Below, piece by piece: positions 1 through 50,441 of a stretch of DNA of 64,000 nt. Numbering within the stretch: position 1 is the stretch's first letter; every line of letters starts with the position of its first letter. The position numbers were made by a program, and so were the translations under genes. The notes below the pieces were generated by a model that saw nothing but the letters and a program-made list of their open reading frames with translations, ran no database searches and had not been told where the DNA came from. Location of the stretch: contig OZ246408.1 in the NCBI GenBank assembly GCA_965231015.1, positions 211,755-275,754 of the forward strand, given 5' to 3'. Source of the stretch: an uncultured Gammaproteobacteria bacterium (GTDB lineage Bacteria > Patescibacteriota > Patescibacteriia > UBA9934 > CAZDDW01).

Positions 1-1
1 T

Positions 2-30
2 TTGACAAGGGTTTAGTAAATAGGTAAAGT
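2..30 (+). promoter_or_regulatory. sigma70-like promoter TTGACA-17nt-TAAAGT, followed by RBS GAAGGAGG at 50-57, upstream of pyrF
   Basis: TTGACA at 2-7, 17-nt spacer, TAAAGT at 25-30; strong SD 10 nt before the ATG at 67. Confidence 0.4.
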
Positions 31-66
31 TGCAAATGCCTAGATAGGCAGAAGGAGGTTCTGGAT

Positions 67-846: not shown

Positions 847-848
847 GC

Positions 849-1577: not shown

Positions 1578-1685
1578 CACATCGCTATTGAACGCAGCGG
1601 ATCTGTCCCGCCCGGGGACCGATCCGTTTTTTGTTTGAAAAGGGTTGACAGGAGAATAAATATAGGGTACTATTTCGCTACTTAT

Positions 1686-3159: not shown

Positions 3160-3161
3160 AT

Positions 3162-17031: not shown

Positions 17032-17685
17032 ATGGAAAGAAAGATTGGGATTATCTTGTTTTTGATTTTGGCCGGTGCGGGTCTGGTTTTAGGTTTTCGG
17101 TATCTGAATGCTCACGTGCGCAGTCCGTTTTATAATGTGCTTTATTATGACGGACCGGAATACGTGACTTTGGCGGAACAAGAATTGGCCGAGCGTGAGG
17201 AACAAAAAAAGACTGACACGGACGGAGACGGCCTGAACGATTACGATGAAATGTACGTTTATGACACTAGTCCGTATTTAACTGATTCAGATTCAGATGG
17301 GTATGATGACAAGGCTGAAGTTTACGGTGGCCAGGATCCGAATTGTCCGGAGGGAAAGGATTGTGGAAGCTATTTTGCTTCAGCCGACGCCACTGGTTCA
17401 GCTGTGGCGGCCAGTGATTTCATTGGTGGGATCCCCAATTCCGGGATTGATGAAAACGGAGCTGGTACCACTTTTGAAACCGAGGAGGATATCATGAATT
17501 ATTTTTCTTCTTTGAGCGCGGATGAAATTCGAGAGGTCATGATCGCCTCAGGCGTGCCGGCTGAAACCTTGGATCAAGTTTCTGATGAGGAGTTGATTGA
17601 GCTTTTTAACGCGGCGCTGGCAAACGCCGAAGACACCGGGGCTTTTGCGAATATTGTGACCGATTACGCCAACAACCAAGAATAA
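17032..17685 (+). CDS. membrane-anchored protein with thrombospondin type-3-like calcium-binding repeats
   Basis: N-terminal TM; DTDGDGLNDYDE and DSDSDGYDD Asp-rich Ca-binding-like repeats; immediately upstream of the giant gene. Confidence 0.5.
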   Translation: MERKIGIILFLILAGAGLVLGFRYLNAHVRSPFYNVLYYDGPEYVTLAEQELAEREEQKKTDTDGDGLNDYDEMYVYDTSPYLTDSDSDGYDDKAEVYGGQDPNCPEGKDCGSYFASADATGSAVAASDFIGGIPNSGIDENGAGTTFETEEDIMNYFSSLSADEIREVMIASGVPAETLDQVSDEELIELFNAALANAEDTGAFANIVTDYANNQE

Positions 17686-17692
17686 AATTTTT

Positions 17693-20600
17693 ATGAATTT
17701 GGCCAGTCAAAACAAAAAAAGATTTCTAGGAGCTTTTATGTTAGTCCTGTTTGTCGGGACTTTTATTATTTCGAGTTTTTTGTTGGCTCATGCAGTCAAT
17801 GCGCAAAGTCAGGATCCATTAGCTACCGCTGAAGCCGGATCCCGAGCCGGTGAGTCAGCCGGAATGCCGGTCGGAAACGCCGGTCAGGCTGCGGCTGATG
17901 TTTTGGAAGTGACAAGCGAGAAATTGGTTCATCCACCTCTAAAAGTTGTTTTGAAAACGGTGCTGATCAACCTTTTGAGTTTTGTGTTAAACCGCCTGGC
18001 TTATGATTTGGCTGTCTTTATGGCCTCAGGTGGTCAGGGACAAACTCCGAATTTCCAGTACAAAAGTGCGGATGAATATTTTGCGGATCTTGGTATGGAC
18101 ATCGTCGGAGCCCACATGGACGCTTTGAACGGAGTGCTAGAAGAGATAGATGTAAACTTCAACGTTTGTGCCCCAGAAGATCCTATTTTCCGTATGGGTA
18201 TTCAGCTTGGGATTCGTTCCGCTTACAGTCGGCCAGAACCGAATTGTGATATTCGCGATGCTATAAATAATTGGGACAGCTTTGTAGGATCGATCCAGGA
18301 ACGTTTCCAGTCTATGGGAGAGAATCCGTCTGATTACGTCTTGAATGAGTTCAAAAAAATATATCGGCCAGGATCGAATGAACTTTCAGCCTCATTTACT
18401 ATTATTTCCAGTATCCAGGATGAGGCTACGACCCATAAAAATGTTAACTTTTTAGAAAATTTGTTTAATCAAGGATACTCGCCGGTAACTGACGCCATTA
18501 CCGGACAGGTTGAAACCCCAGCGGACATTATTCAACGCAAGACCCAGCAGGAGCTGGTTGAAGCTCAAGGAGATCAGACGCAGATGAATTGGGACGCGGT
18601 GATGTCTGACTCGGACCTACTCGTTGGAATGGGAATGTCAGCGGCTTCTGTTTTCTTAAATACTTTACTTTCCGAACTTCTTAACAATATTTATACCGGA
18701 GTGTTTGATGTTGAGCTTGTTGAAGAAGACGTTTTCTCCGGGCAGTATGCTTCAGTCGGAGGTCGAGAAGCGGCTGAAGAAAAGTACCGTGACCTGTTAA
18801 GTGTTGAGCTTGTTTCGCTCGACAGTTTTTCGCCAATAACCGAGCTTTTGGCCTGTCCGGGTTCAACCAGTCGCGGCATTTTCAACTGTGCTATGGACGC
18901 GGCTTTTGCTACCGCTGTGACAGCCGCGGAAACAGGGGAACCAATGACAGTTCAGGAGGCTCTTGACGACGGAATTTTGCATGGCAGTTGGCCACTCATT
19001 CCACCGGACGATTACGCCAAGAATCAGGATCCATACTGTTACACCTATGGTTATTGTTACGCCAACCTGGTTAAGCTTAGAAAGTTCCGTATTATTCCGA
19101 TTGGTTGGGAAATGGCCGCGGCATCACCATATAACAGCAAATCAAATCCAGTGACTCTTCAGGAGGTGGTGGATAGTTTTGATGATTGTTCAAACGAGGG
19201 TAAAGCTAATGCCAACCACCCATGGTGCCACATAATCGATCCAAACTGGGTCTTAAAAGCGCCGGAAACATATTGCCCTGCGGCTGCCCCGGGTGAGTTG
19301 CTCGTCAGTTCAAGCCTCGACACTCGTCAATCTTACTGTATGGATACTCCAAGTTGTATTGCCACAGACGACCAGGGAAATTGTATTGGCGGGCAAGGAT
19401 ATTGTACGCGGGAAAAAAATGTGTGGAATTTCCGCGGGGACGAGTGTCCAGAGCAATACGCCAGTTGTTTGAATTTCCAAAATGTCGATACCAATGAAAC
19501 TGCCAGCTGGCTTTTGAATACAGTTGATTTCAATGACTGTACTGAAGATAACGCCGGTTGTATGTGGTACCGCACCAATAAATATTTTGATGATTTCGGA
19601 ACCGGGGATACAAGTGACGATACTTATGAGTGGTTGGCAACCGGTGATGATTTTATTGTTGATGACCGGGATGATGACATGGAAAGCAATATTACCGGTC
19701 CGGGAAGTTATGGTTATGATTCAGATGGAGACGGAACAGATGATTATAGCTATGAGCAATACGCGTACGAAGACCGTCTTTATATGACCGGGGACGTGGT
19801 TTCCTGTGATGAGGCTGATGCCGGGTGTACCGAGCTCGTTGCCAAAGATAATGACACGTTCTTGAACTTGGTAGCCAACTCCAGTTTCGAGTATGACGAA
19901 AACGGAGACGGTGAACCGGATTTTTGGTACGGGGTAGACACGTCCGATTATCGCGTTGATGATGGTAGCTCACTTTATGGGCTTGACTCGATTGAAATGA
20001 GTTCGGCAACGGTCGACGTTTATCAAGAAATTAAAATAACTCCAAACGCCTTTTACACCTTGAGCTTCTTTGTCAAAGATCCGACCGCCGGTTCAATGAG
20101 CGGATCAATGTTGGTTGAGGTTTATGACGAATCCGGGGTTGAAGTCAGTTTAACCGGCACAACCATTCTGGGTGACTGTGTGCAGGATGATCCGTATTCA
20201 GTCATCACTGAATTTACTGATGTTGGAGAAGATTGGAGTCGTTATGAATGTATTTTTACGGCTCCGGAAGACGCGGATAATGTGCAATTGGTCTCTGATT
20301 GGGCCAGTGGTAATTATTATCTTGATGCTGTGCAATTGGAAGAGGGAAGCATAATGAGTGATTATCATGAAGAGTATGGCTCGAGCACGCTTGATTACGA
20401 TTATTATAAATTACCACCGGATTACTTAGGTTGTACCGGCTCTGATGCTGATCCGGCCGAGTGTGATGATTATGTCCGTATGTGTAGCGCCCAAGATGTT
20501 GGTTGTAATCTGTATTACCCGGAAGATGGTGACCCTGAGGTGCCGGCTATTATTACAGAACTTGATCAGTGTCCGAATGAGTGTGTTGGCTACGCCACCT

Positions 20601-23600
20601 ACAAACAAGAAGCTACCCTTTATGACCAGTCCGAGTTCCCACTCTACTTTATCCCGTCATCTGCAGCCAGTTGTGATGAAACCAGTGTTGGTTGTGATGA
20701 ATTTACGAATTTAGATGAAGTGGCTGAGGGAGGTGAAGGTCTTGAGTATTACACATATTTACGTGCCTGTTCTGATCCGGCTGACACGGCTGAAGCCGCC
20801 ACCTTCTTTAGTTGGGAAGGTTCGGACCAGAACGGTTATCAGCTTGTAAGTTGGGATTTGATTGAATCTAATCTTTCTGACGCTTCATCCCATACTTTTG
20901 CCAGTGGTTTTGAAGAAGATAATATCGGTCAAGCTCCTTGTGTAAATCCGGTCATGCTCTCCGAAGGTGAATTGGTTTGTGATGATAACGGTTATGAAGA
21001 CGAAGAAACCGGTTTGACCGGGATTAACGGAATTGCCGCTAATGAAGCGTGTGACGAACACGACGACATTTTCTCTAATCCGGATTGTCGTGAGTTTTAT
21101 GACTCGGATGGTAATATCCACTACCGTGAATTCTCTTTAACCGCTACGGTTACCGAAGACTGTGCTCCTTATCGAAAAACAGAATCTACCCAAGATGACT
21201 GTACCGGCTCTGGTGGGTTCTGGACGCAAGGCGGCGAGTGTCGATATCTTGGATACTATGTAGAAAGCACTGAGTGTTCATCTTCGGCCAACGGTTGTCG
21301 AAGCTACACCGGTGGAGCCGGTCGTAACGCCACTACTATATTCTATGACGAGGTCGAGGATGGAGCTTTGAATGAATGGAACACGGCCACAGCTACAATT
21401 AGTAATGACTCTGTTGTGGCGGACGGACATTCCATCTTTATACCAACCGGAGGATCTCGACTCAGTACTCTTTACATTGATGAAGACATAGCTGGAACCA
21501 CCTGTCCAACAGATGAAGTGTGTACCATTACCGATCCGGTCACTGGAGCTAGCTGTGACATTGTCGGAACTGATGAAAATGATTACTGCGGTACTTTGGT
21601 TGGTGGAATGGTTCAAGGCAAGACCTACATCCTTTCCTTCTGGGCCAAGGGTAATGGATCGCTATATTCAACCCTAGTTGACCACGGAGGAATGGATGAC
21701 TCACACCGGTTCCAAACCGACGCGGTTGAGCTGTCCGGAAGCTGGCAGTTATACACCATGGGCCCTCTTGATACCTCGGACGCTAATGACTTCCAGGATT
21801 TTGACGATTCAGCCATCTTGCAAATTTATAATACTGATAACGAACTTTTCTACATTGATAACATCCAGCTCAAAGAAGTGGAAGACAATATCGCGCTCAT
21901 TAAAGATTCATGGGTCACTCCGTCAACTTGTGACCAATCGCCTACTGGAGCGGATTCAGCCCAGTACTATCTTGGTTGTGAGGCTTACACTGATGCCGAT
22001 GGCGAGGACTGGAGCCTTTACCGCTTTACGAACCTTTGTTCTGACTCGGCTATTGGTTGTTCGGCCTACTTTGATACCCAAAACAGTTCATCGCCATACG
22101 CTGAGGTGCACAACGCCACCTGTTCGGCGATAGATTTTAATAATGTTTCTTTGTTCACTCCGGACGGAGATGGAACTCCGGAAGCGGGCGAAGGTTATTG
22201 TACTCTTGATCCAACCGAAGAGTGTGCCACACACACAGATTGTATTGCTGCTACTTTTGACTTAAACGCTCGTTGTGTGGCTTATGAACCAACCGCTTGT
22301 GAGATTGATAGCGACAGTGTGTGTACAATTCAGGTGGGTGAAAGCACCTGTAAATTTGATTGGGACGGCAATCTACCAACCACCAAGCCGGATAACATTT
22401 GGCTTGCCCCGGAAACTAAGGTGGTATCAAACGATGAGATTGTCTACTTTATTGCCGACAATACTTACTCGTGTTCATCTTCGGATAAGGGGTGTACTGA
22501 ACTCGGACTTCCTGACTTTAATCAGGACAAGAGTGAAGTGGAAAGTTTTGAATCGGTTTACCTGTTAGACCAGCCCGACAGTTATGACACTCTGCTTTGT
22601 GAGCACCAGAGTCTTTTCTGTGAGGCTTGGTCAACGAACGAAGACGGTAATTTCTACTTTAAGCATCCGGATGAGCAAACCTGTGAGTGGAAGGAAGCCG
22701 TGACTATTAATAATGATGATTACACCGGTTGGTTTAAAACCGGAACCACTGAACCGTGTTACGAAGATTATTTGATTTCCGGGGACGAGTACAGTATTTG
22801 GCGTAACGGGGACATGGATTATGATGGTTGGGTGGGGACGTGTGGAGTGCAGCATGATCAGTGTACTGAGTTTGTTGATGTGACTGACCTCGAAGAAGGT
22901 GGTCGAGCCGACGGCACTCCGTACTACTATTTACGCAACGACGCTATTTCAGAAAGTGAGGTTCCGGATTCGCAAAAGTGTAACGGACAAGTGTCACAAC
23001 GCTACGGCTGTGCTCTGTTCAACGATACTTCTGATTCAAACCTGTATTACAACGCCAGTGCTTCATACGTGGTCTCGGCTCATGCCGACACCTTGTTTGG
23101 TGATGCCCCACATTCTCTGCAATCACCGATTAATTGTGACAACGAGCAGGGCGGTGAAATTACCACGGTCAACAATAGCACGATTGATGTTTGTACTCAG
23201 CGTTGTGAGTATGATGTTTACGTTGGGGTCGGAGTGCCGGCCGGAACCGTGAGTTATGAGGATTCCTGTGTGATTGATTCTGACTGCCCAACTATTACTG
23301 ACGACTATCAAAATGAAATTACCGGCAGTTGTGTTGATGCCGGGGACGCTAACCGTTTAAGTAACGACGTAAATGTGATTCAAAAAGTGTACCGCGACCG
23401 CGAATGTGCGGAATGGATTACTTGTATTAATGAGTCTTATAGCTGGGACGAACGGCTCGGTTCTTACCGTGGCGTGTGTTCCGGGGTTTCGGCTTGTAAC
23501 GAGTACTCGGCTATCGGCGACACCGCCTTCTGTGTCGGTTTCCCGGAAAACGATCCTGATCCATTAACCCTTGAAGAGTATTCGGCCCGTGACGTGACCT

Positions 23601-26600
23601 GGTTCGGCCGTGACTATTCCGGTTACTCAATTCCGAAATTAATTCCCGCCGAGTTCTTGACTGAGATCAATGTTAATCCGGTCATGGGTTGTGTATTGGC
23701 TAATCGTGGCTGGATAGCTAATAATACTTTTGGCTGGCCATTTAGTTGTGATGATGATGCTGACTGTGATCAGTTTGATGACGTGGGATTTGATTATTCG
23801 TGCCAGGCTTTGGATACCGACATCCGCATGGGATATCAGGCCGGTGGTTGTAATGTTGAAAATGGTGATGGTTGTACCATTGGAGTTTGTGAGGATTCCG
23901 GTGACAGTTGTGAATCAGATGCTGATTGTGGTGGGGCGGATTGTTTAGTCGGTTTCTGTGAGGTGGCTAATTTGAATACTTCATGTACTAGCGACAGCTA
24001 TTGTTCAACAAATTTCAGTCCTTACAGTACTTGTGTAAATGGAATTTGTACCGAGGTGACCACTACTTCATGTGTTGAAGACGATGATTGTGGAACTGAC
24101 CTGGATGACGATGGTGATGGCGACATTGATATTGATTACGAGTGTGACATTGTGGCCGGAGCTTTTGTTGGAAATTGTATCAATGGCGGTTGTTCCGTTG
24201 ATCAATACGGCACCACCTTTAGTTTAGATACTTCAGAGGTTCTCGAGTGCCGTGGTTATCCGGAACAAACTTCACCGTACCCGCAAGAATTGGTTGATGA
24301 GTGGCGAGTGGTGACGTGTACTGACGAAAATGATCCGTCAACGTGTTCGACTTCTTACGAACTGCAAGTTGATGATGCTGAAAATGATAGTATCCCAAGT
24401 CAAACCAGAACCGGTTATGACAACGTTAATGTTTGTTCGCCCGGTTATGAAGATTGTCTGTGTAGTTATGATAAAGCCACTTACGGCAACGGTTCGGAAA
24501 CCAGGTACTATGAATACGGTTCAAGCCGTGAAAGCGACGCTCTCTCCGGAGTCTGCTTTAGTGGTGCTTTAGAAGGTCGATCTTGTGACAGTAATGATGA
24601 TTGCGGTTCCAGTGGATCATGCATGATTCTGGACGGTTGGGATTCCTATCTTGGTTGGGAAGGGTTCTGTTTGGAGCGTGATACAGCTATGAATCTCTGG
24701 GGAGATGCCAATGGTCCGGGAGTATGTTTGACCTGGCTGCCGGTGGATCAGTTTGCCGGTTCTACTGACATTTATGCCAAGAACGAAGAAGCCGGGTTCC
24801 CACTTGAAGATTACTACTATTGTACTGAAGCCGCTTACTTTGTGGATCTTTATCCAACCGGCTCAATTTTTGATAACGATCCAAATAGTGATACTTATGG
24901 ACAGGTGGTGGATATACAACCGGGTTGTACGGAGTCATTGCGGGAGGGGCATGTTGCGTATGATACAGTTGACTGGACTGAAAATGAAGCTCAAACAGCC
25001 GGGTGTGGTTATAAAGAAGATGCCGATGGTGAGTTTGGAGAGAATGAATACGATGCCTGTTGGTACAACGTAGCCTGTCCGGATGGTTATTACGGAATTG
25101 TTGGTTATTGTGATCCAAGTGCTCGACCAAATGATTATGCTGACCAATGCTTAGAGGGCGCACCAAACGGAAATTTCTACGGTGCTGCTGATGACGATTG
25201 TCCGTTTATGTGCATTCCGGAAAATGCTTATGATTTAGTAACAGGAGAGTCTTGTGATGATTTAGCAAGTAGTTTAACTCATGATTTTGAATCAAGATTT
25301 GGTACCACAGTGTACTTGGGTGGTCATTTTGATTATCGCGTGGAAGCATTTAAGAATTGTGTTGTACGTGGTGTTCCAATGACTGGTGAAAATGATCCGA
25401 ATAATGATGGTTATGAAACCCAGTGGGCTGAATGGATGACAAATTCCGGATTCAATGGTAACCATTTTCACGAGGCTGGGGATGCTTGTAATGATCAAAC
25501 TGGCAATCCGGATCACTACAGTTGGAATAATGCAAAACCTCTTGGACAATGGGGGATTGTATGTGACCCCCCTAATGGTGATGAGGGGTTCTGGAATTTG
25601 GATTTTTCCGGGGCCAATCCATCCGGTAGCACGACAGATAACCAAGGGGCAGTGGTGGAATACATAGGTTGTGCCGCTTTGGTTCAGGCTTCCAGTTCTG
25701 AGCCGGAACTTGGAAACAAGGCCTTTACTAATCGTTTGTTGCATGACGGTGATATATATACTTGGCAAGCCATTGGTAATGATCCGGGAGATATTTTGGA
25801 ATGGGCCGATGGATTGGATCCTGCTCTTGGCTATGACCAAAATGAGGCTCCGGGTCCGGTTGGTCGGGTGGCCTTTAAAGAATATTACAAAGATAGAGAT
25901 GAAGAAGGAGACCCTAGCGACGACGATGTTCAATATGTGTTCTCAACAGGAGACGGTCCGTTTGATTTTGTAGATGCACCAAACGGAATAGATGCACCGG
26001 ACTCCGCTCCAATACCACTTCTGACTTGTGATCAGGGTTCAACCATACCGGGTGGCTTTGGTCTTTCCGTGACTGACCCGGATGATCCGAATAGTTTGTG
26101 TACACAGGGTTACTACCAGTATCCAACTTTGGCTCAATTCCCGGATATTGGAATTATTGATCTGTTTTCATATGCCTTGGGTCTTTCGTATGAAGATTTG
26201 GACGTCGATACTGATTTAGGAACTCATGCTGATGAGGAAGATGCCGTTTTAAAAAACAAGAACGATATTTTGTCATTTGGTTCGAGTGATGGAGTTGAAA
26301 GTGTGCTTTTTTCACTGGGGCAGTTCTTTGCCAAAACTTTTGAAGGATTCGCTTGGGATTGGGAGGGAACCGGAACGGGATTTAACGGCGGTGCTTATAT
26401 CCCGGATACTGAATATTCACAGCTTTATGATCAGACCATGGACATTGCCGATCAGCAGCCGGTTGATGAGTTTGAGGTTGGTTCAGCCAATGACGGCGAG
26501 CCAAGCGCTCCGTACGTCATGGGGGTTGGTGCGTGTTTCGGATCACTTTGCAAGGAAGATTCCGATGATGATGAAAACCTCTTTACCTTAAATGATAAAA

Positions 26601-27265
26601 CCGGAGGAACAATTTTTGGCGAGCAGTTTAAACATGTGATCATGAAGTTCTTCTTTTCCACCGACCCTAACCAGTTCCCAATCCGCACAGTGAAGATTGA
26701 TTGGGGTGATGGGCAAACGTACGGAAGTGAGTCAAACGACAATTATTACAAAGCGCATCGCGGATTGAAAGATACCTCGGGAAATGAAACCACCACGTAT
26801 TGTGATACGGGTGATGAGTGGGGTATGACTTTGGAATCGTGTGACCCGAGTTATTTCACCTTCAGTCATGATTACATTTGTGCTTCCACCACGTACCAGT
26901 CCGTTTTGCCGTCGTGTGACATTGAACCAAGTCCGGTGGACGGCCGGCCAATGGTGCTGAATTCGCCGTGTCAGGGCGGGGACGCCACGACTTATGGGGT
27001 GAGTGGTACCGCCTGCGTCTTCCAGCCGCGATTGTACATCAAGGATAACTGGGGGTACTGCACCGGGTATTGTGAAGGCGATCCGGCCGGGGATTTGTGT
27101 TATGATGATGACGATGGAGGTACTGGGATTAATGAATGTCAGTTAACATGTCCTGATGAGAGTTTTCAGGAATGTGAAAAAATGGGAGAGATCGGGGCTG
27201 TTTATCCAGATAGTGCAAACCCATGGGTTTATTACAACGGCTTGGTTGAGGTTGAGCCGGAGTAG
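17693..27265 (+). CDS. giant (3190 aa) cysteine- and aspartate-rich secreted/surface protein with CBM-like beta-sandwich domains
   Basis: Uninterrupted 9573-nt ORF; N-terminal signal/TM; recurring C-x(4-9)-[AGNS]-G-C-x-E/Y motifs; two galactose-binding-like/CBM4_9-like segments (…NSSFEYDENGDGEPDFWYG…, …GKTYILSFWAKGNG…); TSP3-like DSDGDGTDD. Confidence 0.8.
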   Translation: MNLASQNKKRFLGAFMLVLFVGTFIISSFLLAHAVNAQSQDPLATAEAGSRAGESAGMPVGNAGQAAADVLEVTSEKLVHPPLKVVLKTVLINLLSFVLNRLAYDLAVFMASGGQGQTPNFQYKSADEYFADLGMDIVGAHMDALNGVLEEIDVNFNVCAPEDPIFRMGIQLGIRSAYSRPEPNCDIRDAINNWDSFVGSIQERFQSMGENPSDYVLNEFKKIYRPGSNELSASFTIISSIQDEATTHKNVNFLENLFNQGYSPVTDAITGQVETPADIIQRKTQQELVEAQGDQTQMNWDAVMSDSDLLVGMGMSAASVFLNTLLSELLNNIYTGVFDVELVEEDVFSGQYASVGGREAAEEKYRDLLSVELVSLDSFSPITELLACPGSTSRGIFNCAMDAAFATAVTAAETGEPMTVQEALDDGILHGSWPLIPPDDYAKNQDPYCYTYGYCYANLVKLRKFRIIPIGWEMAAASPYNSKSNPVTLQEVVDSFDDCSNEGKANANHPWCHIIDPNWVLKAPETYCPAAAPGELLVSSSLDTRQSYCMDTPSCIATDDQGNCIGGQGYCTREKNVWNFRGDECPEQYASCLNFQNVDTNETASWLLNTVDFNDCTEDNAGCMWYRTNKYFDDFGTGDTSDDTYEWLATGDDFIVDDRDDDMESNITGPGSYGYDSDGDGTDDYSYEQYAYEDRLYMTGDVVSCDEADAGCTELVAKDNDTFLNLVANSSFEYDENGDGEPDFWYGVDTSDYRVDDGSSLYGLDSIEMSSATVDVYQEIKITPNAFYTLSFFVKDPTAGSMSGSMLVEVYDESGVEVSLTGTTILGDCVQDDPYSVITEFTDVGEDWSRYECIFTAPEDADNVQLVSDWASGNYYLDAVQLEEGSIMSDYHEEYGSSTLDYDYYKLPPDYLGCTGSDADPAECDDYVRMCSAQDVGCNLYYPEDGDPEVPAIITELDQCPNECVGYATYKQEATLYDQSEFPLYFIPSSAASCDETSVGCDEFTNLDEVAEGGEGLEYYTYLRACSDPADTAEAATFFSWEGSDQNGYQLVSWDLIESNLSDASSHTFASGFEEDNIGQAPCVNPVMLSEGELVCDDNGYEDEETGLTGINGIAANEACDEHDDIFSNPDCREFYDSDGNIHYREFSLTATVTEDCAPYRKTESTQDDCTGSGGFWTQGGECRYLGYYVESTECSSSANGCRSYTGGAGRNATTIFYDEVEDGALNEWNTATATISNDSVVADGHSIFIPTGGSRLSTLYIDEDIAGTTCPTDEVCTITDPVTGASCDIVGTDENDYCGTLVGGMVQGKTYILSFWAKGNGSLYSTLVDHGGMDDSHRFQTDAVELSGSWQLYTMGPLDTSDANDFQDFDDSAILQIYNTDNELFYIDNIQLKEVEDNIALIKDSWVTPSTCDQSPTGADSAQYYLGCEAYTDADGEDWSLYRFTNLCSDSAIGCSAYFDTQNSSSPYAEVHNATCSAIDFNNVSLFTPDGDGTPEAGEGYCTLDPTEECATHTDCIAATFDLNARCVAYEPTACEIDSDSVCTIQVGESTCKFDWDGNLPTTKPDNIWLAPETKVVSNDEIVYFIADNTYSCSSSDKGCTELGLPDFNQDKSEVESFESVYLLDQPDSYDTLLCEHQSLFCEAWSTNEDGNFYFKHPDEQTCEWKEAVTINNDDYTGWFKTGTTEPCYEDYLISGDEYSIWRNGDMDYDGWVGTCGVQHDQCTEFVDVTDLEEGGRADGTPYYYLRNDAISESEVPDSQKCNGQVSQRYGCALFNDTSDSNLYYNASASYVVSAHADTLFGDAPHSLQSPINCDNEQGGEITTVNNSTIDVCTQRCEYDVYVGVGVPAGTVSYEDSCVIDSDCPTITDDYQNEITGSCVDAGDANRLSNDVNVIQKVYRDRECAEWITCINESYSWDERLGSYRGVCSGVSACNEYSAIGDTAFCVGFPENDPDPLTLEEYSARDVTWFGRDYSGYSIPKLIPAEFLTEINVNPVMGCVLANRGWIANNTFGWPFSCDDDADCDQFDDVGFDYSCQALDTDIRMGYQAGGCNVENGDGCTIGVCEDSGDSCESDADCGGADCLVGFCEVANLNTSCTSDSYCSTNFSPYSTCVNGICTEVTTTSCVEDDDCGTDLDDDGDGDIDIDYECDIVAGAFVGNCINGGCSVDQYGTTFSLDTSEVLECRGYPEQTSPYPQELVDEWRVVTCTDENDPSTCSTSYELQVDDAENDSIPSQTRTGYDNVNVCSPGYEDCLCSYDKATYGNGSETRYYEYGSSRESDALSGVCFSGALEGRSCDSNDDCGSSGSCMILDGWDSYLGWEGFCLERDTAMNLWGDANGPGVCLTWLPVDQFAGSTDIYAKNEEAGFPLEDYYYCTEAAYFVDLYPTGSIFDNDPNSDTYGQVVDIQPGCTESLREGHVAYDTVDWTENEAQTAGCGYKEDADGEFGENEYDACWYNVACPDGYYGIVGYCDPSARPNDYADQCLEGAPNGNFYGAADDDCPFMCIPENAYDLVTGESCDDLASSLTHDFESRFGTTVYLGGHFDYRVEAFKNCVVRGVPMTGENDPNNDGYETQWAEWMTNSGFNGNHFHEAGDACNDQTGNPDHYSWNNAKPLGQWGIVCDPPNGDEGFWNLDFSGANPSGSTTDNQGAVVEYIGCAALVQASSSEPELGNKAFTNRLLHDGDIYTWQAIGNDPGDILEWADGLDPALGYDQNEAPGPVGRVAFKEYYKDRDEEGDPSDDDVQYVFSTGDGPFDFVDAPNGIDAPDSAPIPLLTCDQGSTIPGGFGLSVTDPDDPNSLCTQGYYQYPTLAQFPDIGIIDLFSYALGLSYEDLDVDTDLGTHADEEDAVLKNKNDILSFGSSDGVESVLFSLGQFFAKTFEGFAWDWEGTGTGFNGGAYIPDTEYSQLYDQTMDIADQQPVDEFEVGSANDGEPSAPYVMGVGACFGSLCKEDSDDDENLFTLNDKTGGTIFGEQFKHVIMKFFFSTDPNQFPIRTVKIDWGDGQTYGSESNDNYYKAHRGLKDTSGNETTTYCDTGDEWGMTLESCDPSYFTFSHDYICASTTYQSVLPSCDIEPSPVDGRPMVLNSPCQGGDATTYGVSGTACVFQPRLYIKDNWGYCTGYCEGDPAGDLCYDDDDGGTGINECQLTCPDESFQECEKMGEIGAVYPDSANPWVYYNGLVEVEPE

Positions 27266-27285: not shown

Positions 27286-27723
27286 TTATAACGAAACCGA
27301 CGAACTCGCGGGATCAACCTTTGATCTCGCGATTGTTTTTGTGTTATTCGTCATTAAATAACGCTTGAGAATACAGGTGTTGGCAGCGAAATTAACCAGG
27401 TATCCAAGCTCATATTTGGTGACACGAAGATAATCAAAAAGTTGTTGGTATAATTTTTTGGGCACAAATAATACCGCTTTTAATTCAACGATTATTTTGT
27501 GGTCAATAATGAAATCCGGTTGATAATACCCGATCATTTTTTGAGTGGTCGGATAATAAGTTTTGATTTTAGGTTGTTGTTCAAACGGGATACCTCGCAG
27601 TCTCATTTCTTCAACCAGAGCTCGTTCATAGATTTTTTCCTTATGACCTCCTCCGAGTTGTTTACGAACCTCAAAGCAGGCCCCTTGAAATCTGTAAGAT
27701 AGATCTGGAAAAAGTAGTGGCAC
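27286..27723 (-). CDS. GxxExxY-family protein (PD-(D/E)xK-like)
   Basis: FQGACFEVRKQLGGGHKEKIYERAL…DFIIDHKIIVELKAV…LGYLVNFA matches the GxxExxY family; the ORF tail overlaps the giant-gene terminator. Confidence 0.55.
   Translation of the reverse strand: MPLLFPDLSYRFQGACFEVRKQLGGGHKEKIYERALVEEMRLRGIPFEQQPKIKTYYPTTQKMIGYYQPDFIIDHKIIVELKAVLFVPKKLYQQLFDYLRVTKYELGYLVNFAANTCILKRYLMTNNTKTIARSKVDPASSSVSL
27306..27340 (+). terminator. rho-independent terminator of the giant gene
   Basis: 12-bp stem TCGCGGGATCAA/TTGATCTCGCGA (one G-U) followed by TTGTTTTT. Confidence 0.5.
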
Positions 27724-27870: not shown

Positions 27871-28506
27871 CTAGTTGACGAGGCAGAGGTAGGTTGACTC
27901 CGAGGGGCTGGTGATGTAGATCACGGTCAGATCCGAGGAGATCCAGCCGTGAATACCCAGAAGCTCGTTGTCATCCTTCTCGTTCGCCAGGTACTGCTCG
28001 TACTCGTCGTCGTTGATGATCACGTCGCCGATGATGTACAGCTTGCCGATCAGGTCGTTGAGCTCGATGTGCTGGCCATCGTCTTCCGTGTAGATGTCGT
28101 ACTCGTACCCGGTGGACTGGGTGCACTCCTCGTCCTCGTAGGACTCGTAGTGGCCTTCGGGCGCGAGGCCGCAGAACAGGTCCACGGATCTGTCGTCGTT
28201 GACCGACTTCTGCGCGTCCAAGCAGAGCACGTTGTCGTGCTCGGCGCCGAAGACGTAGGTACCCTCCTCGAGCTCGGTCGTGGTGGGCGTGTTGCCGATC
28301 ACGTCTTCGTCGGCGAAGGCAGTGAGCGTGAACAGGTCGTCCACGTTCGTGTAAACCGATACTTCGTAGAACGACGTATCGGTCGTGTCGTCGTCATCCG
28401 CGACGTCATCGTCGCCGGGATCGGGATCGACGTTCTCGTCGCAACCGGTGAACAGGAATGCCCCCATGATGAGGGCGGCGAACAGGGTGTACCACTTGGT
28501 GGTCAT
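27871..28506 (-). CDS. acidic lipoprotein with poly-Asp linker (GC-rich, likely acquired)
   Basis: Lipobox LFTGC; DPDPGDDDVADDDDTTDT linker; GC content far above the local average. Confidence 0.5.
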   Translation of the reverse strand: MTTKWYTLFAALIMGAFLFTGCDENVDPDPGDDDVADDDDTTDTSFYEVSVYTNVDDLFTLTAFADEDVIGNTPTTTELEEGTYVFGAEHDNVLCLDAQKSVNDDRSVDLFCGLAPEGHYESYEDEECTQSTGYEYDIYTEDDGQHIELNDLIGKLYIIGDVIINDDEYEQYLANEKDDNELLGIHGWISSDLTVIYITSPSESTYLCLVN

Positions 28507-31703: not shown

Positions 31704-32045
31704 GACATTAGAACGTTCAAAGCACACCTCAAACATAATAGAGCCACGAGGAAATTGAAAGATTGAGACAACTGTTTAACTCGGTCCGCTAATTCCGGAT
31801 GGAATAAGTAAGTCGAGTTAGCCCCACGATTAAACGGTGCTCAGTTTTAAGCATAATTAAAGCCGGGTTCTGCTCCATGGTTCAGGGCGCGATCAGCAAG
31901 AGGGGAGTCTGCTGGTCGCCCATGAATCATTTTACTCCTACGTCTCCTTGGCTAAATCCTAACGGATTCCCCAAGCCAAGGAGGCGGTCGATCAGTGTTT
32001 GATCGAATTCGTCTCTTGTACCTTTCACAAGTTCAGGAGACAAAA

Positions 32046-33911
32046 ATGCAAAAGTTCATCACGGCTCTGGTGGTTTTTCTGGTGGCCGGCCTCACGCCGG
32101 CACCCATGGGATGTTCGGCGGGTTTCGATCCGGTCGATACCACCGCAACCACCGAAACCGGCGACCAGGGGGGTTACACCCCCACGGACGTGATCTACCC
32201 ACCCTTTGCCGCCGGCGAAGTCTACCAGTGCACGCAAGGCGTTGGCGGCAGCTATTCCCACAGCTCGGCCAGCACGTACGATGCCATCGACTTCGACACG
32301 CCCAACACCTACGACGTCGACGTGTACGCACCCTGTTCCGGCGTGGCGCGAGTGCATCATGACGCTTCGCCTTCTGGTTTCGGTATCCACGTCAACATCG
32401 ACCGCGGTGACGGAACCTACTGCTTGGTAGCACACCTCGCTGACGTGTTTGTGACCGATGGCGAGGACATCACACACGGTCAGTACATGGGCTTTGAGGG
32501 CTCAACCGGCTACAGCGACGGTGATCATGTGCACACGGCGTTGATGCAGGGTGACGCAAGCCAAATGGCTCAGTACGCCACCACGCTTCCGGTCAGCTTC
32601 TACGTCCGTGATGTCACTGCCGGTGGCGATTTCGCGGCCATTCCGGCCGAGGAATTCGTTTGCGGCATGAGCAACGGTCACTTCTACGAGTCCGGCCTGT
32701 CGGTCGCCAACTGGGTGCCTGATGGGACGCTCATGAAGTATCCGGGCGCAAGCGAAGTCTATGTGGTGGACGCCGATGAGCTCTACTGGATCGAAGACGA
32801 AGAGGTCTTCACAAGCTTCGGGTTTGAGATGAGCGAAATCGTGGCCATGGCCGAGATCACTTATTACGAGTGTCTGGGCGAGGCTTCGGACCTGATCGAT
32901 TGGACCACGGAGTACCGTGGGCTCATCGATGACGACGGCGTGACCTGGATCGCGTTCGAGCCGGCTGATGACCCGGGGCGGTTCCGCTTGCCAATTCAAC
33001 CCTACCAGGAAGAAGGCGCGGTCTTGACCATGATCGATTCCTGGGGGCTCCAGGGTGTCTATGGCATGTACCAGCAGGAGTCAGCCGAGCTCATCGAGTA
33101 CCCGATTGGCAACGGCTACGCGCTGTTGCGCGACGGAACGCTCGTCACCGAGCAGGGTGACTCGACCGTGTACGCGATTCACGAAGGTCTGGCTCTGCCG
33201 ATCGATTCATGGGACACGCTCGTGCTCATGGGTTTTTCCGAGCGTCGCGTTCACACCGTGCCCGAAGGAACGCTCGAGCAAATGGTGCTCGACGTTGGCA
33301 GTTGCTCGGCTGGGATCGGGTGCATTACCCGCGACGTGGTTACTGGCTGCGGAACCGGACTCGACCTGTCGCTCCTCGACACTGACCCGGACTGGGGCGG
33401 CATCGGGGACGATGACGTCGGGGACGACGATGATGTCTCGGATGACGATGACTCGGATCCGGGAGATGACGACGACACCGCAGACGACGATGACACCGGT
33501 GATGACGATGACGTCGGGGACGACGATGACGACGACACCATGGCTGACCCATGGATGTTGCTCGAAATCTATGCTGGGCTCACCGGCGCTCCGGCTGACT
33601 ACATCTGGCTCCAGGGTGAGCTCCTTGACGAGAATGGCCTGACGGCTGGCGGCGGTTTCTGGTGGGCCTCGCTCGGGATTGAGTACACGACCAACTCCAT
33701 TGAATGGAGCGCGTACGTGCAGCCCGACTGGACCTTCCGCTACTCCGTGGAATTCGAGCGCTATTCCGTAGTGGCCTGGTCCTGTTCCACTCCGTTCCCG
33801 CCCGGAACCTACAACATGGACCTCACGGCCATGGTCGATGGCACACCGATCATGATCGATCTCATCGACAACTACCTCGGCGGCTGTGAGCTCTGGATCG
33901 AGGTGCCGTGA
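32046..33911 (+). CDS. M23-family (LytM/lysostaphin-like) peptidoglycan endopeptidase lipoprotein with poly-Asp linker and C-terminal extra domain (GC-rich, likely acquired)
   Basis: Lipoprotein signal …LTPAPMGCS; M23 motifs HSSASTYDAIDF (Hx6D), VYAPCSGV, GDHVHTAL (HxH); linker DDDVGDDDDVSDDDDSDPGDDDDTADDDDTGDDDDVGDDDDDD; about 62 percent GC. Confidence 0.7.
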   Translation: MQKFITALVVFLVAGLTPAPMGCSAGFDPVDTTATTETGDQGGYTPTDVIYPPFAAGEVYQCTQGVGGSYSHSSASTYDAIDFDTPNTYDVDVYAPCSGVARVHHDASPSGFGIHVNIDRGDGTYCLVAHLADVFVTDGEDITHGQYMGFEGSTGYSDGDHVHTALMQGDASQMAQYATTLPVSFYVRDVTAGGDFAAIPAEEFVCGMSNGHFYESGLSVANWVPDGTLMKYPGASEVYVVDADELYWIEDEEVFTSFGFEMSEIVAMAEITYYECLGEASDLIDWTTEYRGLIDDDGVTWIAFEPADDPGRFRLPIQPYQEEGAVLTMIDSWGLQGVYGMYQQESAELIEYPIGNGYALLRDGTLVTEQGDSTVYAIHEGLALPIDSWDTLVLMGFSERRVHTVPEGTLEQMVLDVGSCSAGIGCITRDVVTGCGTGLDLSLLDTDPDWGGIGDDDVGDDDDVSDDDDSDPGDDDDTADDDDTGDDDDVGDDDDDDTMADPWMLLEIYAGLTGAPADYIWLQGELLDENGLTAGGGFWWASLGIEYTTNSIEWSAYVQPDWTFRYSVEFERYSVVAWSCSTPFPPGTYNMDLTAMVDGTPIMIDLIDNYLGGCELWIEVP

Positions 33912-37290: not shown

Positions 37291-37299
37291 TAAACTATT

Positions 37300-39111: not shown

Positions 39112-39123
39112 TAGAATACACTC

Positions 39124-39552: not shown

Positions 39553-39554
39553 TT

Positions 39555-40235: not shown

Positions 40236-40237
40236 TT

Positions 40238-42166: not shown

Positions 42167-42176
42167 CAATAAATAT

Positions 42177-48463: not shown

Positions 48464-49786
48464 CTAATTACATGGTGGAGCGGTATAACATGATTGAGTA
48501 GTGTTGTTTCCCGGTGTTGTTTGGAAATGCCAAATTTCTCCAGTGTAACGCAACCAACCGGCACTGTACATAATTTCTGCCAGTAAACGAACTGCTTCCG
48601 GATCAGCACTTGATTGACTACTATAGGAAACATTCCAAGAAAGATCTCCATCGCTGTCGCGGTATTTGATATCGACTGCAGTACCGGTTCCGTGAGCAGA
48701 AGTGCCTGGCCAAGCCACGGCTGAAGGAACTCCGCTCATATTTTTACAAGCCAATTCAAGTTGTCTGGCCAATGATCGGTAGGTTCCTATCACTACCAAG
48801 GTGACATTTTCTTCGCGTGCTCGATCTGCAGCTTGCAACAAAGCATCCAACGCGTCAGGGGTTAAGTAATGACCGGCCGAGGCTTCGAGTCCTGGGTAAT
48901 CCGTTGGCACAGATTCAAGCTCACTTGGACTGGTCATGCCTTCAGTTTTTAGACCCGGAACAAGTGCTTCTAAAGCATCAGTATCGGTTCCGTTAGCTGT
49001 ATCGTTGCAAAAATCTCGGCACTCATCGTGGGTGCTACACAATTTTGAGGCTCCGGAAGAATAGGTGGCGTCATATTCCTCTTCGTTTTGGATGGGTTGA
49101 AAGGGAACATTTCTTACAGACAGGGTTTCAAAACTGGTTAAGCCAGGCGAGACAGTGTTTAAGATAACGTAACTTCCAAGCAAAATAACAAAACCGATTA
49201 CAGCCGACCTGATGCGTTCTTTAGCCTTTTGTACCTCCCCGGTGCCCTTACCGATCATGTACTGAACCCCACCGATCATAATCACCACGGTGGCCACAAT
49301 TACCCCAGCCCCAATCAACCATGTGTACCAAGCGTTAACATATTCACCCAGCAGATTGATTTTTAAGTTGTCACCCTCTTGTAAAATTTCAGAAAAACTG
49401 AAGTTGGGAATCTCAACGTTTAAGATAGGGATAATCGGCGGGGCGAGCGGAGGTGCTTCTTCTGTGATTTTGTTTAGTGCGACTAGAGCAGCATCAGCTT
49501 GGTCATTAGTGTATTCACATGCTGCTTCTTGTTCATCTAGATCAGCTTGTTGGGGCCATAAATAAGTTAAAGGGTCATACTTGTCTCCGTAATAGGTTTG
49601 ACAAATGCTTTTACATTCAGCATCGTCTGAAATATTTTGTTGTGTTTTTATGGATAAAGGAAAACACTGAAGAACCTCCTGGTCATTAACATAACAGAAA
49701 CATTGGCTGGAATCATAAGCAAAAACAAAAGCCGGTAAAATGATTCCTGTCAGCAGGATTAGACCGATGATGAATTTATTCTTCAT
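48464..49786 (-). CDS. secreted Cys-rich protein fusing a VirB2/TrbC pilin-like membrane hairpin to a C-terminal M15 (VanY-like D,D-carboxypeptidase) domain
   Basis: Signal peptide; WLIGAGVIVATVVIMIGGVQYMIGKGTGEVQKAKERIRSAVIGFVILLGSYVIL (two hydrophobic helices around a charged loop); M15 motifs TYRSLARQ, SAHGTGTAVDI, EIWHF. Confidence 0.55.
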   Translation of the reverse strand: MKNKFIIGLILLTGIILPAFVFAYDSSQCFCYVNDQEVLQCFPLSIKTQQNISDDAECKSICQTYYGDKYDPLTYLWPQQADLDEQEAACEYTNDQADAALVALNKITEEAPPLAPPIIPILNVEIPNFSFSEILQEGDNLKINLLGEYVNAWYTWLIGAGVIVATVVIMIGGVQYMIGKGTGEVQKAKERIRSAVIGFVILLGSYVILNTVSPGLTSFETLSVRNVPFQPIQNEEEYDATYSSGASKLCSTHDECRDFCNDTANGTDTDALEALVPGLKTEGMTSPSELESVPTDYPGLEASAGHYLTPDALDALLQAADRAREENVTLVVIGTYRSLARQLELACKNMSGVPSAVAWPGTSAHGTGTAVDIKYRDSDGDLSWNVSYSSQSSADPEAVRLLAEIMYSAGWLRYTGEIWHFQTTPGNNTTQSCYTAPPCN

Positions 49787-50441
49787 AACGAGTCAGTTCA
49801 AGTAATAATTCACGGACGCGTAATTCGAGTTCAGTTGTCGTCATAGAGCCGGTGTAAGAGAATTCATTGATGAAGATGGTTGGAGTAGCGACTAGATTCA
49901 AACGTAGAGCTTCTTCATAAGTGCGTTGTACAAGGGGCAAAGTTTCATTGTTTTCGTAACACTCTGAAAAAGCCTCTCTGTCAAGTTCCAGATAGTCAGC
50001 TAAGCTGTAAAAAAAGTTACGGCTGATTTGATTTTGATTTGCGTACAAAAGGTCATGGTATTCCCAAAATTTACCCTGGTTGCCCGCGCAGTATGAAGCT
50101 ACAGCGGCCGGAGTAGCCATTTCATTGGCTCCATCGTTCGGGACGGCTTTGTAAATATGCCGAACATCGTTAGGTAATAGCTGTTGAATGTAGAGAATAG
50201 ATTCAGCCATTTCTTGGCAAGCCGAACAAGTAAAATCGGTATATTCAACAATAGTGATGGTGGCGTCAGTTGGACCACGAGACGGATCAATGTAGGTGAT
50301 CACCGGTTCGCTAAGGATTGTCTGATCCTCTTCTGAATCATTAGAAGTTTGAGGTGGGCGAGTGGCTATGTAGAAACTAGCCAAGACTAAACCGGTTAAA
50401 ATCAGTACAGCTACCCAGGCAATAATGCGTTTGTGTCCCAT
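49776..50441 (-). CDS. DsbA-like thiol:disulfide oxidoreductase, membrane anchored
   Basis: N-terminal TM; thioredoxin CxxC motif FTCSACQ. Confidence 0.65.
   Translation of the reverse strand: MGHKRIIAWVAVLILTGLVLASFYIATRPPQTSNDSEEDQTILSEPVITYIDPSRGPTDATITIVEYTDFTCSACQEMAESILYIQQLLPNDVRHIYKAVPNDGANEMATPAAVASYCAGNQGKFWEYHDLLYANQNQISRNFFYSLADYLELDREAFSECYENNETLPLVQRTYEEALRLNLVATPTIFINEFSYTGSMTTTELELRVRELLLELTRYEE

Follow-up and report, generated by a model that had tools for sequence, protein, structure and literature searches.

A giant cysteine-rich candidate surface protein and its calcium-loop membrane partner in a Patescibacteria genome

What role could be played by a single gene that takes up approximately 1% of a 1-Mb bacterial genome, and whose relatives are annotated as hypothetical in every case? 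We pursued this question for a window of 64,000 nucleotides (the whole stretch of DNA that was analysed), in which a first-pass annotation had described a giant extracellular protein coupled to a small calcium-loop membrane protein. The gene proves to be one open frame without interruption, as had been proposed, and encodes 3190 amino acids (~340 kDa). Chimeric assembly, which had been named as a possible artefact, is excluded by more than 100 full-length collinear homologues from independent NCBI, JGI, ENA and Logan assemblies. The deposited product (P0001) has the same sequence but starts 15 codons further in; the upstream ATG regains a Lys/Arg-rich n-region, as is present in the homologues. 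The features of the locus and the region map of the giant protein are as follows.

17032..17685, + strand: partner gene, 217 aa, with an N-terminal transmembrane segment (aa 1-27); ends 7 nt before the giant gene
17693..27265, + strand: giant gene, 3190 aa, 138 Cys, net charge -455
17693..17803, + strand: predicted signal peptide (aa 1-37, from hydropathy), with a KKR n-region, a hydrophobic core and AVNA followed by QS at the putative cleavage site
17870..18862, + strand: N-terminal region (aa ~60-390), long helices predicted at low confidence (pLDDT < 60)
18887..19249, + strand: most conserved block (aa 399-519), modelled confidently (pLDDT 80-94), 50-64% column identity
19250..19852, + strand: first Cys-hairpin cluster (aa 520-720), C-x6-C hairpins at aa 564, 585, 616 and 705
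19850..20377, + strand: jelly roll 1 (aa ~720-895), CBM4/16-like, in a variable slot
20675..21307, + strand: conserved beta-rich domain (aa ~995-1205), 210 aa, confidently modelled
21440..21892, + strand: jelly roll 2 (aa ~1250-1400), CBM_4_9, best stretch aa 1304-1355
21890..23692, + strand: second conserved Cys scaffold (aa 1400-2000), hairpins at aa 1449, 1594, 1636 and 1717
23690..24202, + strand: dense Cys-knot cluster (aa 2000-2170), C-x5-C ... G-x-C units
24815..26467, + strand: hypervariable recombining cassette (aa ~2375-2925), delimited by dN, identity, boundaries and phylogeny
26468..27265, + strand: conserved Cys-rich C-terminal cap (aa 2926-3190), 265 aa, motifs VDWGDG and DNWGWCTG
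27306..27332, + strand: terminator-like hairpin, 12 bp stem then a T-run, 41 nt past the giant stop codon
49776..50441, - strand: DsbA/MdbA-like thiol-disulfide oxidoreductase, CSAC motif and N-terminal hydrophobic anchor

Export signals and an obligate gene pair

The giant protein carries an export signal, which supports the proposed extracellular location. This signal had been read as an anchor. However, a hydrophobic core followed by A-x-A-Q is conserved family-wide among the homologues, and therefore the N-terminus looks like a signal peptide that may be cleaved. By hydropathy, it is the sole strongly hydrophobic segment of the protein, and none occurs beyond aa 103. No other transmembrane segment, LPxTG motif or lipobox was found in the protein, and its C-terminus, which reads ...NPWVYYNGLVEVEPE, does not present the combination of LPxTG, hydrophobic segment and positive tail that marks sortase substrates.

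The upstream partner contains two 12-residue loops of the EF-hand/TSP3 type, DTDGDGLNDYDE at aa 62 and DSDSDGYDDKAE at aa 85, which conform to DxDxDGxxDxxE and lie 23 residues apart. Outside these loops come a conserved disulfide loop (CPEGKxCG), a linker that varies, and a tail that is helical and acidic; the invariant residues are those of both calcium-type loops and the Cys loop. Assignment to a named family is weaker. Pfam TSP3_bac (PF18884) scores 23.1 bits, below its gathering threshold of 25, and is 'weak' or 'faint' on the partner homologues. EF-hand proteins give weak matches, those in the PDB not being significant (E 0.1-0.8), and Dockerin_1 does not match the partner.

In all 67 loci (67/67) a partner homologue lies directly upstream of the giant gene on the matching strand, and this adjacency is kept even at 27-28% identity, despite a differing neighbourhood. 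Compared with the closest genome, the partner is 94.5% identical. The coupling of the two genes noted in the first-pass annotation is thus borne out by an obligate pair, but its further suggestion that both proteins share calcium-binding Asp-rich loops applies clearly to the partner and weakly to the giant protein. There, D-x-[DN]-x-[DN]-G matches three times (aa 676, 735 and 2136), and the matches at aa 676 and 2136 fall in poorly occupied, variable parts of the family alignment. Acidity is common to all exported proteins of the window, and thus is not specific to this gene.

A cysteine scaffold and two jelly rolls under strong constraint

Cysteine makes up 4.3% of the giant protein, compared with 0-2.7% of all other secreted proteins and most other ORFs of the window; the sole ORF that is equally rich (4.4%) is a cytoplasmic zinc-ribbon ComF-like ORF. 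The recurring Cys units initially described are enriched, with C-x5-G-C observed 7 times versus 0.5 expected (maximum of 4 in 2000 shuffles) and C-x6-C observed 14 times versus 5.9 +/- 2.3 expected, although they amount to about 11-14 hairpins rather than the dozens first counted. Hairpin positions are invariant across the family. What was called a Cys-repeat architecture is in fact non-repetitive, collinear and orthologous: no tandem repeat was detected in the gene, and hhalign self-comparison finds weak internal similarity confined to the two jelly rolls and hairpin motifs of ~30 aa.

Among 103 aligned homologues, 104 of the 138 Cys positions are kept in at least 80% of the sequences. Gains and losses occur as local pairs or quartets (r = 0.87-1.0), and the total is even in 78 of 96 full-length homologues. 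The Cys pairs are conserved, and the protein is probably disulfide-bonded, with 69 putative disulfides. A likely oxidant is encoded 22 kb away, where the first-pass annotation had correctly placed a DsbA homologue near type IV secretion system (T4SS) genes. This ORF, which adjoins a T4SS-pilin/VanY fusion, scores 80.7 bits with Thioredoxin_4 and 28.9 bits with DSBA, and combines the fold with a CxxC motif and an anchor. A CPR-enriched MdbA-like family has been described (bioRxiv 10.1101/335083). If the enzyme does act on the giant protein, the two genes would be functionally linked.

Both jelly rolls proposed earlier were recovered. Pfam CBM_4_9 (PF02018) scores 29.1 bits over two stretches, above its gathering threshold of 25.9, and this membership covers aa ~720-895 and ~1250-1400 only. 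Further matches are to the NCBIfam GTA spike-fibre domain at aa 769-891 and, in a PDB profile search, to CBM16/CBM4 at E ~1e-3; hhalign pairs aa 751-890 with aa 1251-1400. The modules are lectin-like and may bind carbohydrate, as judged from these profile matches. In distant homologues the slot of jelly roll 1 is empty, and in P0081 it holds two PKD domains.

Approximately 90% of the 3190 residues have no match in Pfam, NCBIfam or the PDB. The region at aa ~60-390 has no PDB or Pfam match and is conserved in every distant homologue; the adjoining block at aa 399-519 includes the motifs NLVKLRKxRIIPxGWExAA and DPNWVLK. For the predicted model of the beta-rich domain (aa ~995-1205), no structural neighbour was found in the PDB. 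One homologue (P0004) scores as DUF7107 in the equivalent of the Cys-knot region. PDB similarity was likewise not found for the C-terminal cap, for which the profile search returned no PKD chain; alignment of the cap with the P0081 PKD domains by hhalign gave a probability of 0.2%, and a PKD identity was rejected. Because structure prediction is poor over most of the N-terminal region (mean pLDDT 54), a fibre shape for the whole protein is an assumption.

The family comprises collinear orthologues of ~3000 aa in 1238 clusters at 50% identity and spans hundreds of species genomes. The named members are Uhrbacteria, Magasanikbacteria and Falkowbacteria, a lineage of ultra-small (CPR) bacteria that we infer to be GTDB class ABY1. 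The impression that the architecture fits no recognised family has held up, since searches of Pfam, NCBIfam, the PDB and the literature gave none for the protein as a whole, nor did the three databases reveal clear homology to a well-known adhesin family. No relative was found on viral contigs. Against the closest relative, identity is ~95% over aa 100-2000 but 87% for KsgA from that genome pair. The N-terminal two thirds therefore evolve more slowly than KsgA, whereas ordinary adhesins evolve fast, and the scaffold is under extreme purifying selection.

A cassette exchanged between strains

The exception to this conservation lies at aa 2375-2925, where identity to the closest relative is only 31-49%. 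In this cassette dN reaches 0.50, versus 0.02-0.05 in the rest of the protein, with dS saturated, such that positive selection is inseparable from relaxed constraint plus recombination. The boundaries are sharp. For example, homologues P0027 and P0031 are ~100% identical up to aa 2375, 22-61% identical up to aa 2925, and then ~100% identical again, and 12 of 13 close pairs show this pattern. For 63 of 104 members the nearest neighbours of the cassette are discordant with the scaffold phylogeny, and strain-level variants differ in patches within it. Cassettes are exchanged between strains.

The divergent span covers ~1.65 kb, contains many indels and has 43-60% nucleotide identity; across the family the cassette varies in length from 245 to 1136 aa. 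These properties led us to reject a diversity-generating retroelement (DGR) target, whose variation would be limited to a short (~100-150 nt) adenine-templated variable repeat. No silent cassette copies are present within the window.

Proposed function and comparison with known systems

We give roughly even odds (a probability of about 0.5) to the reading that the gene pair produces a Sec-exported, disulfide-stapled surface fibre, peculiar to this one CPR lineage and held by the membrane partner, in which a constant scaffold with lectin-like modules carries a recombining specificity cassette for contact with partner cells. The giant protein would be exported by Sec and its signal peptide cleaved, and the membrane-anchored DsbA/MdbA-like enzyme would oxidise it to a rigid form with ~69 disulfides. 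Possessing neither a covalent nor a membrane anchor of its own, it would be held non-covalently by the co-transcribed single-pass partner, whose two calcium-binding loops form its conserved part. The constant scaffold (aa 40-2375) would project the two jelly rolls together with the swappable 550-residue cassette, and the latter might set which partner or host surface is recognised, or might serve to evade recognition by phage or host. Disulfide formation, surface exposure, tethering, binding and the adhesive role are all parts of this proposal; the recombining cassette provides the strongest indirect support for interaction at the surface. Against the proposal, adhesins do not typically show such strong conservation and single-copy collinearity, features that would also suit a structural part of the envelope or of a machine, and distant members do without jelly roll 1.

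An S-layer or other envelope lattice, with the conserved N-terminal two thirds forming or anchoring a paracrystalline coat and an outward-facing cassette varying under phage pressure, is unlikely but has several points in its favour. The giant protein is encoded by one strongly constrained copy that is conserved throughout the lineage, and it is secreted without a covalent anchor, acidic and accompanied by a calcium-loop partner. There is reportedly precedent in Campylobacter fetus SapA and Clostridioides difficile SlpA, where a conserved anchor is joined to a variable exposed part that is exchanged by recombination, and cryo-EM by Luef and colleagues in 2015 is said to have revealed a surface layer on groundwater CPR cells. 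However, typical S-layer proteins are smaller and nearly Cys-free, far from a protein of this mass and Cys content, and no SLH, CWB2 or other wall-binding domain was found in Pfam searches, which included sub-segments at E values up to 10. Less probable again is a secreted polymorphic effector, toxin or enzyme with the variable region as its active payload, which we consider very unlikely. A constant N-terminal part, a variable C-terminal third and variable downstream genes loosely recall toxin loci, but here the variable part lies inside the protein, with the conserved cap after it. Moreover, no toxin, Rhs/YD, FHA or catalytic domain appears in the query, in three homologues or in the Pfam column of 125 matches, the downstream genes are not homologous between loci and thus offer no conserved immunity-like partner, and viral contigs carry no relative. 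A CdiA/Rhs polymorphic toxin was rejected on these same grounds.

Gene order raises the prospect of an accessory adhesin for the T4SS or competence machinery, which would stabilise contact during DNA or effector transfer in the role of the PrgB-type adhesin that Patescibacteria reportedly lack; we regard this as improbable. The giant gene lies between KsgA and a T4SS cluster (a 923-aa protein, a 603-aa protein, PrgI and VirB4), and 19 of 32 loci encode a homologue of the 923-aa protein no more than 10 kb downstream, among them that of the L004 relative (27% identity) and a Falkowbacteria locus. No adhesin was found for the Patescibacteria T4SS, and ABY1 loci carry comF, recG and radA (PMC12102498), as does this window. 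Against this idea, the T4SS genes are set apart from the giant gene by 1-8 kb of variable sequence and by what looks like a terminator, and no T4SS gene was detected within 6 kb of the pair in loci L003 and L005. Furthermore, synteny extends over the whole block, with Cpn60, RF1 and KsgA, so that proximity may reflect conserved gene order only.

A stronger form of the surface-fibre reading, which we put forward as a tentative possibility, holds that the pair forms a previously undescribed host-contact organelle that defines the lineage of ABY1-class Patescibacteria and is nearly essential to it, with a rigid, new-fold scaffold of 69 disulfides more constrained than core rRNA-modification machinery and a specificity reprogrammed by homologous exchange of the 550-residue cassette. 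If so, the pair would be the main determinant of host attachment in each uncultured episymbiont, possibly together with the adjacent T4SS. Apart from cultured Saccharibacteria, CPR bacteria have yielded almost no molecular candidates for the recognition of host cells and attachment to them. The present family supplies a concrete candidate: it occurs in hundreds of species, is more tightly conserved than KsgA and has a clearly delimited module that can be exchanged. Existing metagenomes allow cassette type to be set against the hosts and phages that occur alongside it, which makes host specificity testable without cultivation. The family would also exemplify heavy extracellular disulfide use in cells thought to lack an outer membrane, and contributes several apparently new folds.

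Among known systems, dockerin/cohesin and EF-hand/TSP3 tethers provide an analogy for the partner, which has two calcium-type loops, is membrane-anchored and is encoded beside its presumed cargo. Unlike those systems, the partner lacks Dockerin_1 and remains below threshold for TSP3_bac, and the giant protein showed no cohesin-like domain. The jelly rolls resemble CBM4, CBM16 and CBM22 modules (CBM_4_9; PDB 2zew, 1gui) at or just above family thresholds, but they form ~10% of the protein, are joined to no glycoside hydrolase, and the first is missing or substituted in other members. In flagellin, type IV pilins, phage receptor-binding fibres and variable S-layer proteins, which we take to combine conserved ends with an exchangeable exposed middle, the division into a constant part for assembly and a hypervariable module, sharply bounded by recombination and discordant in phylogeny, is similar, whereas sequence and fold are not.

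The Peregrinibacteria have large extracellular proteins with signal peptides and ~7% Cys, in which strain variation is concentrated and for which an attachment role was proposed (PMC4736985). These are alike in CPR origin, export signal, Cys richness and size. However, they form a multi-gene cluster, average ~1650 aa and show weak similarity to Myxococcus Cys repeats (PMC4736985), in contrast to a single gene for ~3000 aa with a fixed partner, and no Peregrinibacteria homologue appeared among the matches.

Large exoproteins are recurrent in CPR genomes, and FhaB-type examples without full-length homologues are reported for Patescibacterium danicum (PMC11809585), whereas the present family exceeds 1000 clusters. 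A two-partner-secretion exoprotein was rejected here, as neither a TPS domain nor FHA repeats were found with Pfam or NCBIfam; the partner does not qualify as a TpsB because it is a single-pass protein of 217 aa and not a beta-barrel. An RTX/LapA/Bap adhesin was rejected as well, given that tandem Ig, cadherin or beta-helix repeats, any Pfam repeat domain, and RTX or T1SS signals are absent from the protein, which has a Sec signal peptide and a Cys-rich cap instead, and that no T1SS genes are among its neighbours. The giant protein shares with LapA, SiiE, Bap and FhaB-type exoproteins secretion, a length of thousands of residues, acidity, calcium association and presumed surface reach, but unlike these giant adhesins it is non-repetitive and collinear, has 69 conserved Cys pairs, and is far more conserved.

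Export signal and predicted cysteine pairing of the giant protein

The giant gene is an uninterrupted frame of 3190 codons, and the finding is genuine rather than an artefact. Its product is identical to the giant protein recorded on a 1.0-Mb NCBI contig, where the start is called 15 codons shorter. A Lys/Arg-rich n-region precedes the hydrophobic core in homologues, and therefore the longer start chosen in the first-pass annotation is favoured. The principal genes lie as follows.

17032..17685 (+), partner gene, encoding a 217-aa membrane protein
17693..27265 (+), giant gene
27286-27723 (-), PD-(D/E)XK_3 family gene
27871-28506 (-), 211-aa lipoprotein-like ORF
31995-33911, M23 peptidase gene
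34519-43468 and 45092-50441, monoderm-type type IV secretion system (T4SS) cluster
49776..50441 (-), DsbA-like gene

The protein carries a Sec-type export signal. Hydropathy gives a single strongly hydrophobic segment (aa 9-37, ending AVNA|QS), past which no further transmembrane segment, LPxTG motif or lipobox was found. A strong terminator-like hairpin is located 3' of the gene. The protein contains 138 Cys (4.3%) and 11% Asp, and has a net charge of -455. Other exported proteins of the window match it in acidity (D+E 18-24%, K+R 2-5%) but contain only 0-2.7% Cys, and thus cysteine richness, not acidity, is what sets the giant protein apart among them. Strong acidity and a scarcity of Lys and Arg (K+R 2-6%) characterize every protein of the window that is predicted to be exported or to have a membrane-anchored ectodomain, whereas cytoplasmic ones are balanced; these ORFs suggest an organism-wide acidic exoproteome.

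The cysteine hairpin motif noticed in the first-pass annotation is genuine, since C-x5-G-C occurs 7 times versus 0.5 expected (maximum of 4 over 2000 shuffles) and C-x6-C occurs 14 times versus 5.9 +/- 2.3. When 103 full-length homologues are aligned, 104 of the 138 cysteines recur in 80% or more of the sequences, and 124 in 50% or more. Variable cysteines are gained or lost as local pairs or quartets (r = 0.87-1.0), a co-variation that partly reflects the presence or absence of entire modules, and the cysteine count is even in 78 of 96 homologues. Conservation, co-variation and even counts together support a prediction of approximately 69 disulfides. The proposed array of cysteine repeats, in contrast, did not hold up: no tandem repeats were found in the giant gene, and internal similarity detected by hhalign consists of a jelly-roll pair and hairpin units of ~30 aa, and nothing else.

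The two carbohydrate-binding-module-like jelly rolls (aa ~720-895 and ~1250-1400) were correctly anticipated. Evidence for them comes from Pfam CBM_4_9 (29.1 bits), an NCBIfam spike-fibre domain matched at aa 769-891, PDB profiles of CBM16/CBM4 (E ~1e-3) and their mutual similarity by hhalign. Nothing beyond these modules was matched by Pfam or NCBIfam with the entire protein, by Pfam with seven sub-segments (E up to 10), or by PDB profiles with aa 60-700, 700-1260 and 2940-3190. Both structure models of parts of the protein rested on 25 sequences only; the AlphaFold model of aa 60-660 was of poor quality (mean pLDDT 54), and Foldseek found no neighbour for it in the PDB. A PKD domain in the C-terminal cap (aa 2926-3190), prompted by WGDG and DNWG motifs, was ruled out by profile comparison. 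We infer a giant bacterial surface protein whose architecture is unrecognised, whose folds are new in part, and for which a function can be proposed.

An obligate partner, a constrained scaffold and an exchanged cassette

The partner ORF ends 7 nt upstream of the giant gene. Its description as a TSP3-repeat membrane protein stands in part: it has a transmembrane segment at the N-terminus and a pair of 12-residue DxDxDGxxDxxE loops, whereas the TSP3_bac score (23.1 bits) falls slightly below the cutoff. PDB profile searches gave EF-hand matches only, none of them significant. A partner homologue is located directly upstream on the same strand in all 67 loci with sufficient upstream sequence, including those of relatives with 27-28% identity and one locus with wholly different surrounding genes. 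The partner gene is thus an obligate companion of the giant gene. In the encoded protein, both Ca-type loops and a CPEGKxCG loop are invariant, whereas the tail varies.

Judged by sequence homology, the giant protein is a member of a large, collinear and unnamed family. A word-indexed search yielded 107 relatives, nearly all 2900-3700 aa in length and all annotated as hypothetical, with named sources among Uhrbacteria, Magasanikbacteria, Giovannonibacteria and the 'Patescibacteria group'; the Magasanikbacteria branch was reached by a second search started from the most distant member. With aa 80-660 as the query, an exhaustive phmmer search produced 1238 clusters (50% identity) at E up to 1e-3 and 955 at E up to 1e-30, and the matched region is always N-terminal in proteins of ~3000 aa. 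Scanning a single genome from each species confirmed 534 stretches, mostly from Uhrbacteria but also from Falkowbacteria, for which 'hundreds of species' is the safe wording because one gene can match two search patterns. No relative was found among IMG/VR viral contigs. Many species-representative MAGs that carry the giant gene, which is specific to Patescibacteria, bear the title 'uncultured Gammaproteobacteria bacterium' (L006, L008, L009 and other loci), and one is filed as 'Candidatus Kapaibacterium'; their conserved CPR synteny suggests that these titles are placeholders or mislabels.

Comparison with the closest relative (P0002, locus L085) reveals 89-99% identity over aa 100-2000, 31-49% over aa 2400-2900 and 70-84% over aa 3000-3190. 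At the nucleotide level, identities of 0.80-0.84 for the conserved part contrast with 0.43-0.60 for the variable one, and dN is 0.02-0.05 over aa 16-1800 versus 0.50 over aa 2400-2950. Synonymous sites are saturated throughout the gene, and therefore no dN/dS value is given for the cassette (aa 2375-2925). For the same pair of genomes, KsgA is 87% identical and the partner 94.5%; the scaffold (aa 40-2375) and the partner are thus more tightly constrained than KsgA, a universal rRNA methyltransferase.

In 12 of 13 close family pairs, conservation is lowest in the cassette region. For example, members P0027 and P0031 are ~100% identical to aa 2375, 22-61% identical over aa 2375-2925, and ~100% identical thereafter. 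Across the family the cassette is 245-1136 aa long, and in 63 of 104 members the nearest neighbour of the cassette differs from that of the scaffold. Among three variants at the strain level (97-100% identical), most differences fall in pair-specific patches within the cassette, which indicates segmental recombination; no silent cassette copies were found within the window. A second, weaker variable slot at aa 650-900 holds jelly roll 1 here and two PKD domains in member P0081, and is almost empty in distant members.

Genomic neighbourhood

Related loci share the block order Cpn60, RF1, epimerase, Sua5, KsgA, partner, giant gene, a variable 1-8 kb, M23 peptidase and T4SS. Of 32 loci, 19 have a homologue of the 923-aa T4SS protein no more than 10 kb downstream of the giant gene. 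The DsbA homologue noted beside T4SS-related genes is indeed there; it is membrane-anchored, has a CSAC motif and adjoins genes for a T4SS-pilin/VanY fusion, RadA, RecG and ComF. The T4SS cluster encodes a 923-aa TrbL-like protein, a 603-aa protein, PrgI, a 226-aa protein and VirB4; its flanks comprise ComF, RecG, RadA, the fusion (12 Cys) and the DsbA-like gene. The placement of comF, recG and radA next to a T4SS is reported for class ABY1 (PMC12102498), with which the window agrees, and this context points to ABY1 as the probable class of the organism.

Downstream genes were rejected as a conserved third component, as there is no homology between loci right after the giant gene, and the content of the stretch before the M23 gene varies. 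Here the PD-(D/E)XK_3 gene follows immediately, and is 46% identical in the closest genome versus ~95% for the adjoining scaffold. The 211-aa ORF has an LFTGC lipobox-like motif, is extremely acidic (D+E 24%, K+R 2.4%) and has no same-position homologue in other loci. The M23 gene, which has counterparts ahead of the T4SS cluster at many related loci, has 59.5% GC and encodes a lipoprotein-like N-terminus; at 33408-33531 it contains a tandem repeat of 18 nt (GACGATGACGTCGGGGAC x 6.6) that encodes an acidic DDDVGD-type repeat. At the opposite end, window positions 1-1600 have 55% GC versus ~45% for the genome, and may be horizontally acquired; they carry PyrF (OMP decarboxylase, 67-846) and an unannotated 251-aa ORF (822-1577), followed by tRNA-Val (1686-1762).

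A proposed recognition fibre and its alternatives

The locus combines an export signal, conserved cysteine pairs, a CxxC oxidoreductase, a partner gene, lectin-like modules, a constrained scaffold and a recombining cassette. These components could be assembled into a disulfide-stiffened recognition fibre, tethered by its partner and presenting the cassette outward, to which as a whole we assign a probability of about 0.5. Cleavage of the signal peptide would leave the giant protein without an anchor of its own, and the membrane partner would then be its natural tether; the partner's sole conserved part is the Ca-loop module. Disulfides would stiffen the long extracellular structure, and the cassette, and to a lesser extent the jelly-roll slot, might face outward to set or vary what is recognized.

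An S-layer-type coat protein seems unlikely, given that size and cysteine content speak against it and that there is no wall-binding domain. Somewhat less probable still is an adhesin dedicated to the adjoining T4SS; no adhesin is reported to be known for such systems (PMC12102498), but the linkage may reflect nothing more than conserved gene order. A polymorphic effector is very improbable, because the variable stretch is an internal one and signatures of a toxin or of immunity were not found.

In general terms, the proposed fibre would act as giant surface adhesins do, its tip being variable, although the protein lacks the defining features of the RTX/LapA/Bap, FhaB/TPS, LPxTG, Rhs/CdiA and DGR-target families, and the wall-anchoring module of S-layer proteins. 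The papers searched offer general remarks on large or cysteine-rich CPR proteins and no description of this family. The large Cys-rich exoproteins reported from Peregrinibacteria (PMC4736985) belong to a different family, as do the FhaB-type giants of Patescibacterium, which are without full-length homologues (PMC11809585), whereas the present family has them. What goes beyond the first description is how large and how extremely constrained the family is, that its partner is obligate and that its cassette is exchanged. A CPR-enriched MdbA-like oxidoreductase family has previously been tied to pilin folding (bioRxiv 10.1101/335083), and the giant protein would be a far larger client of such an enzyme than pilins are.
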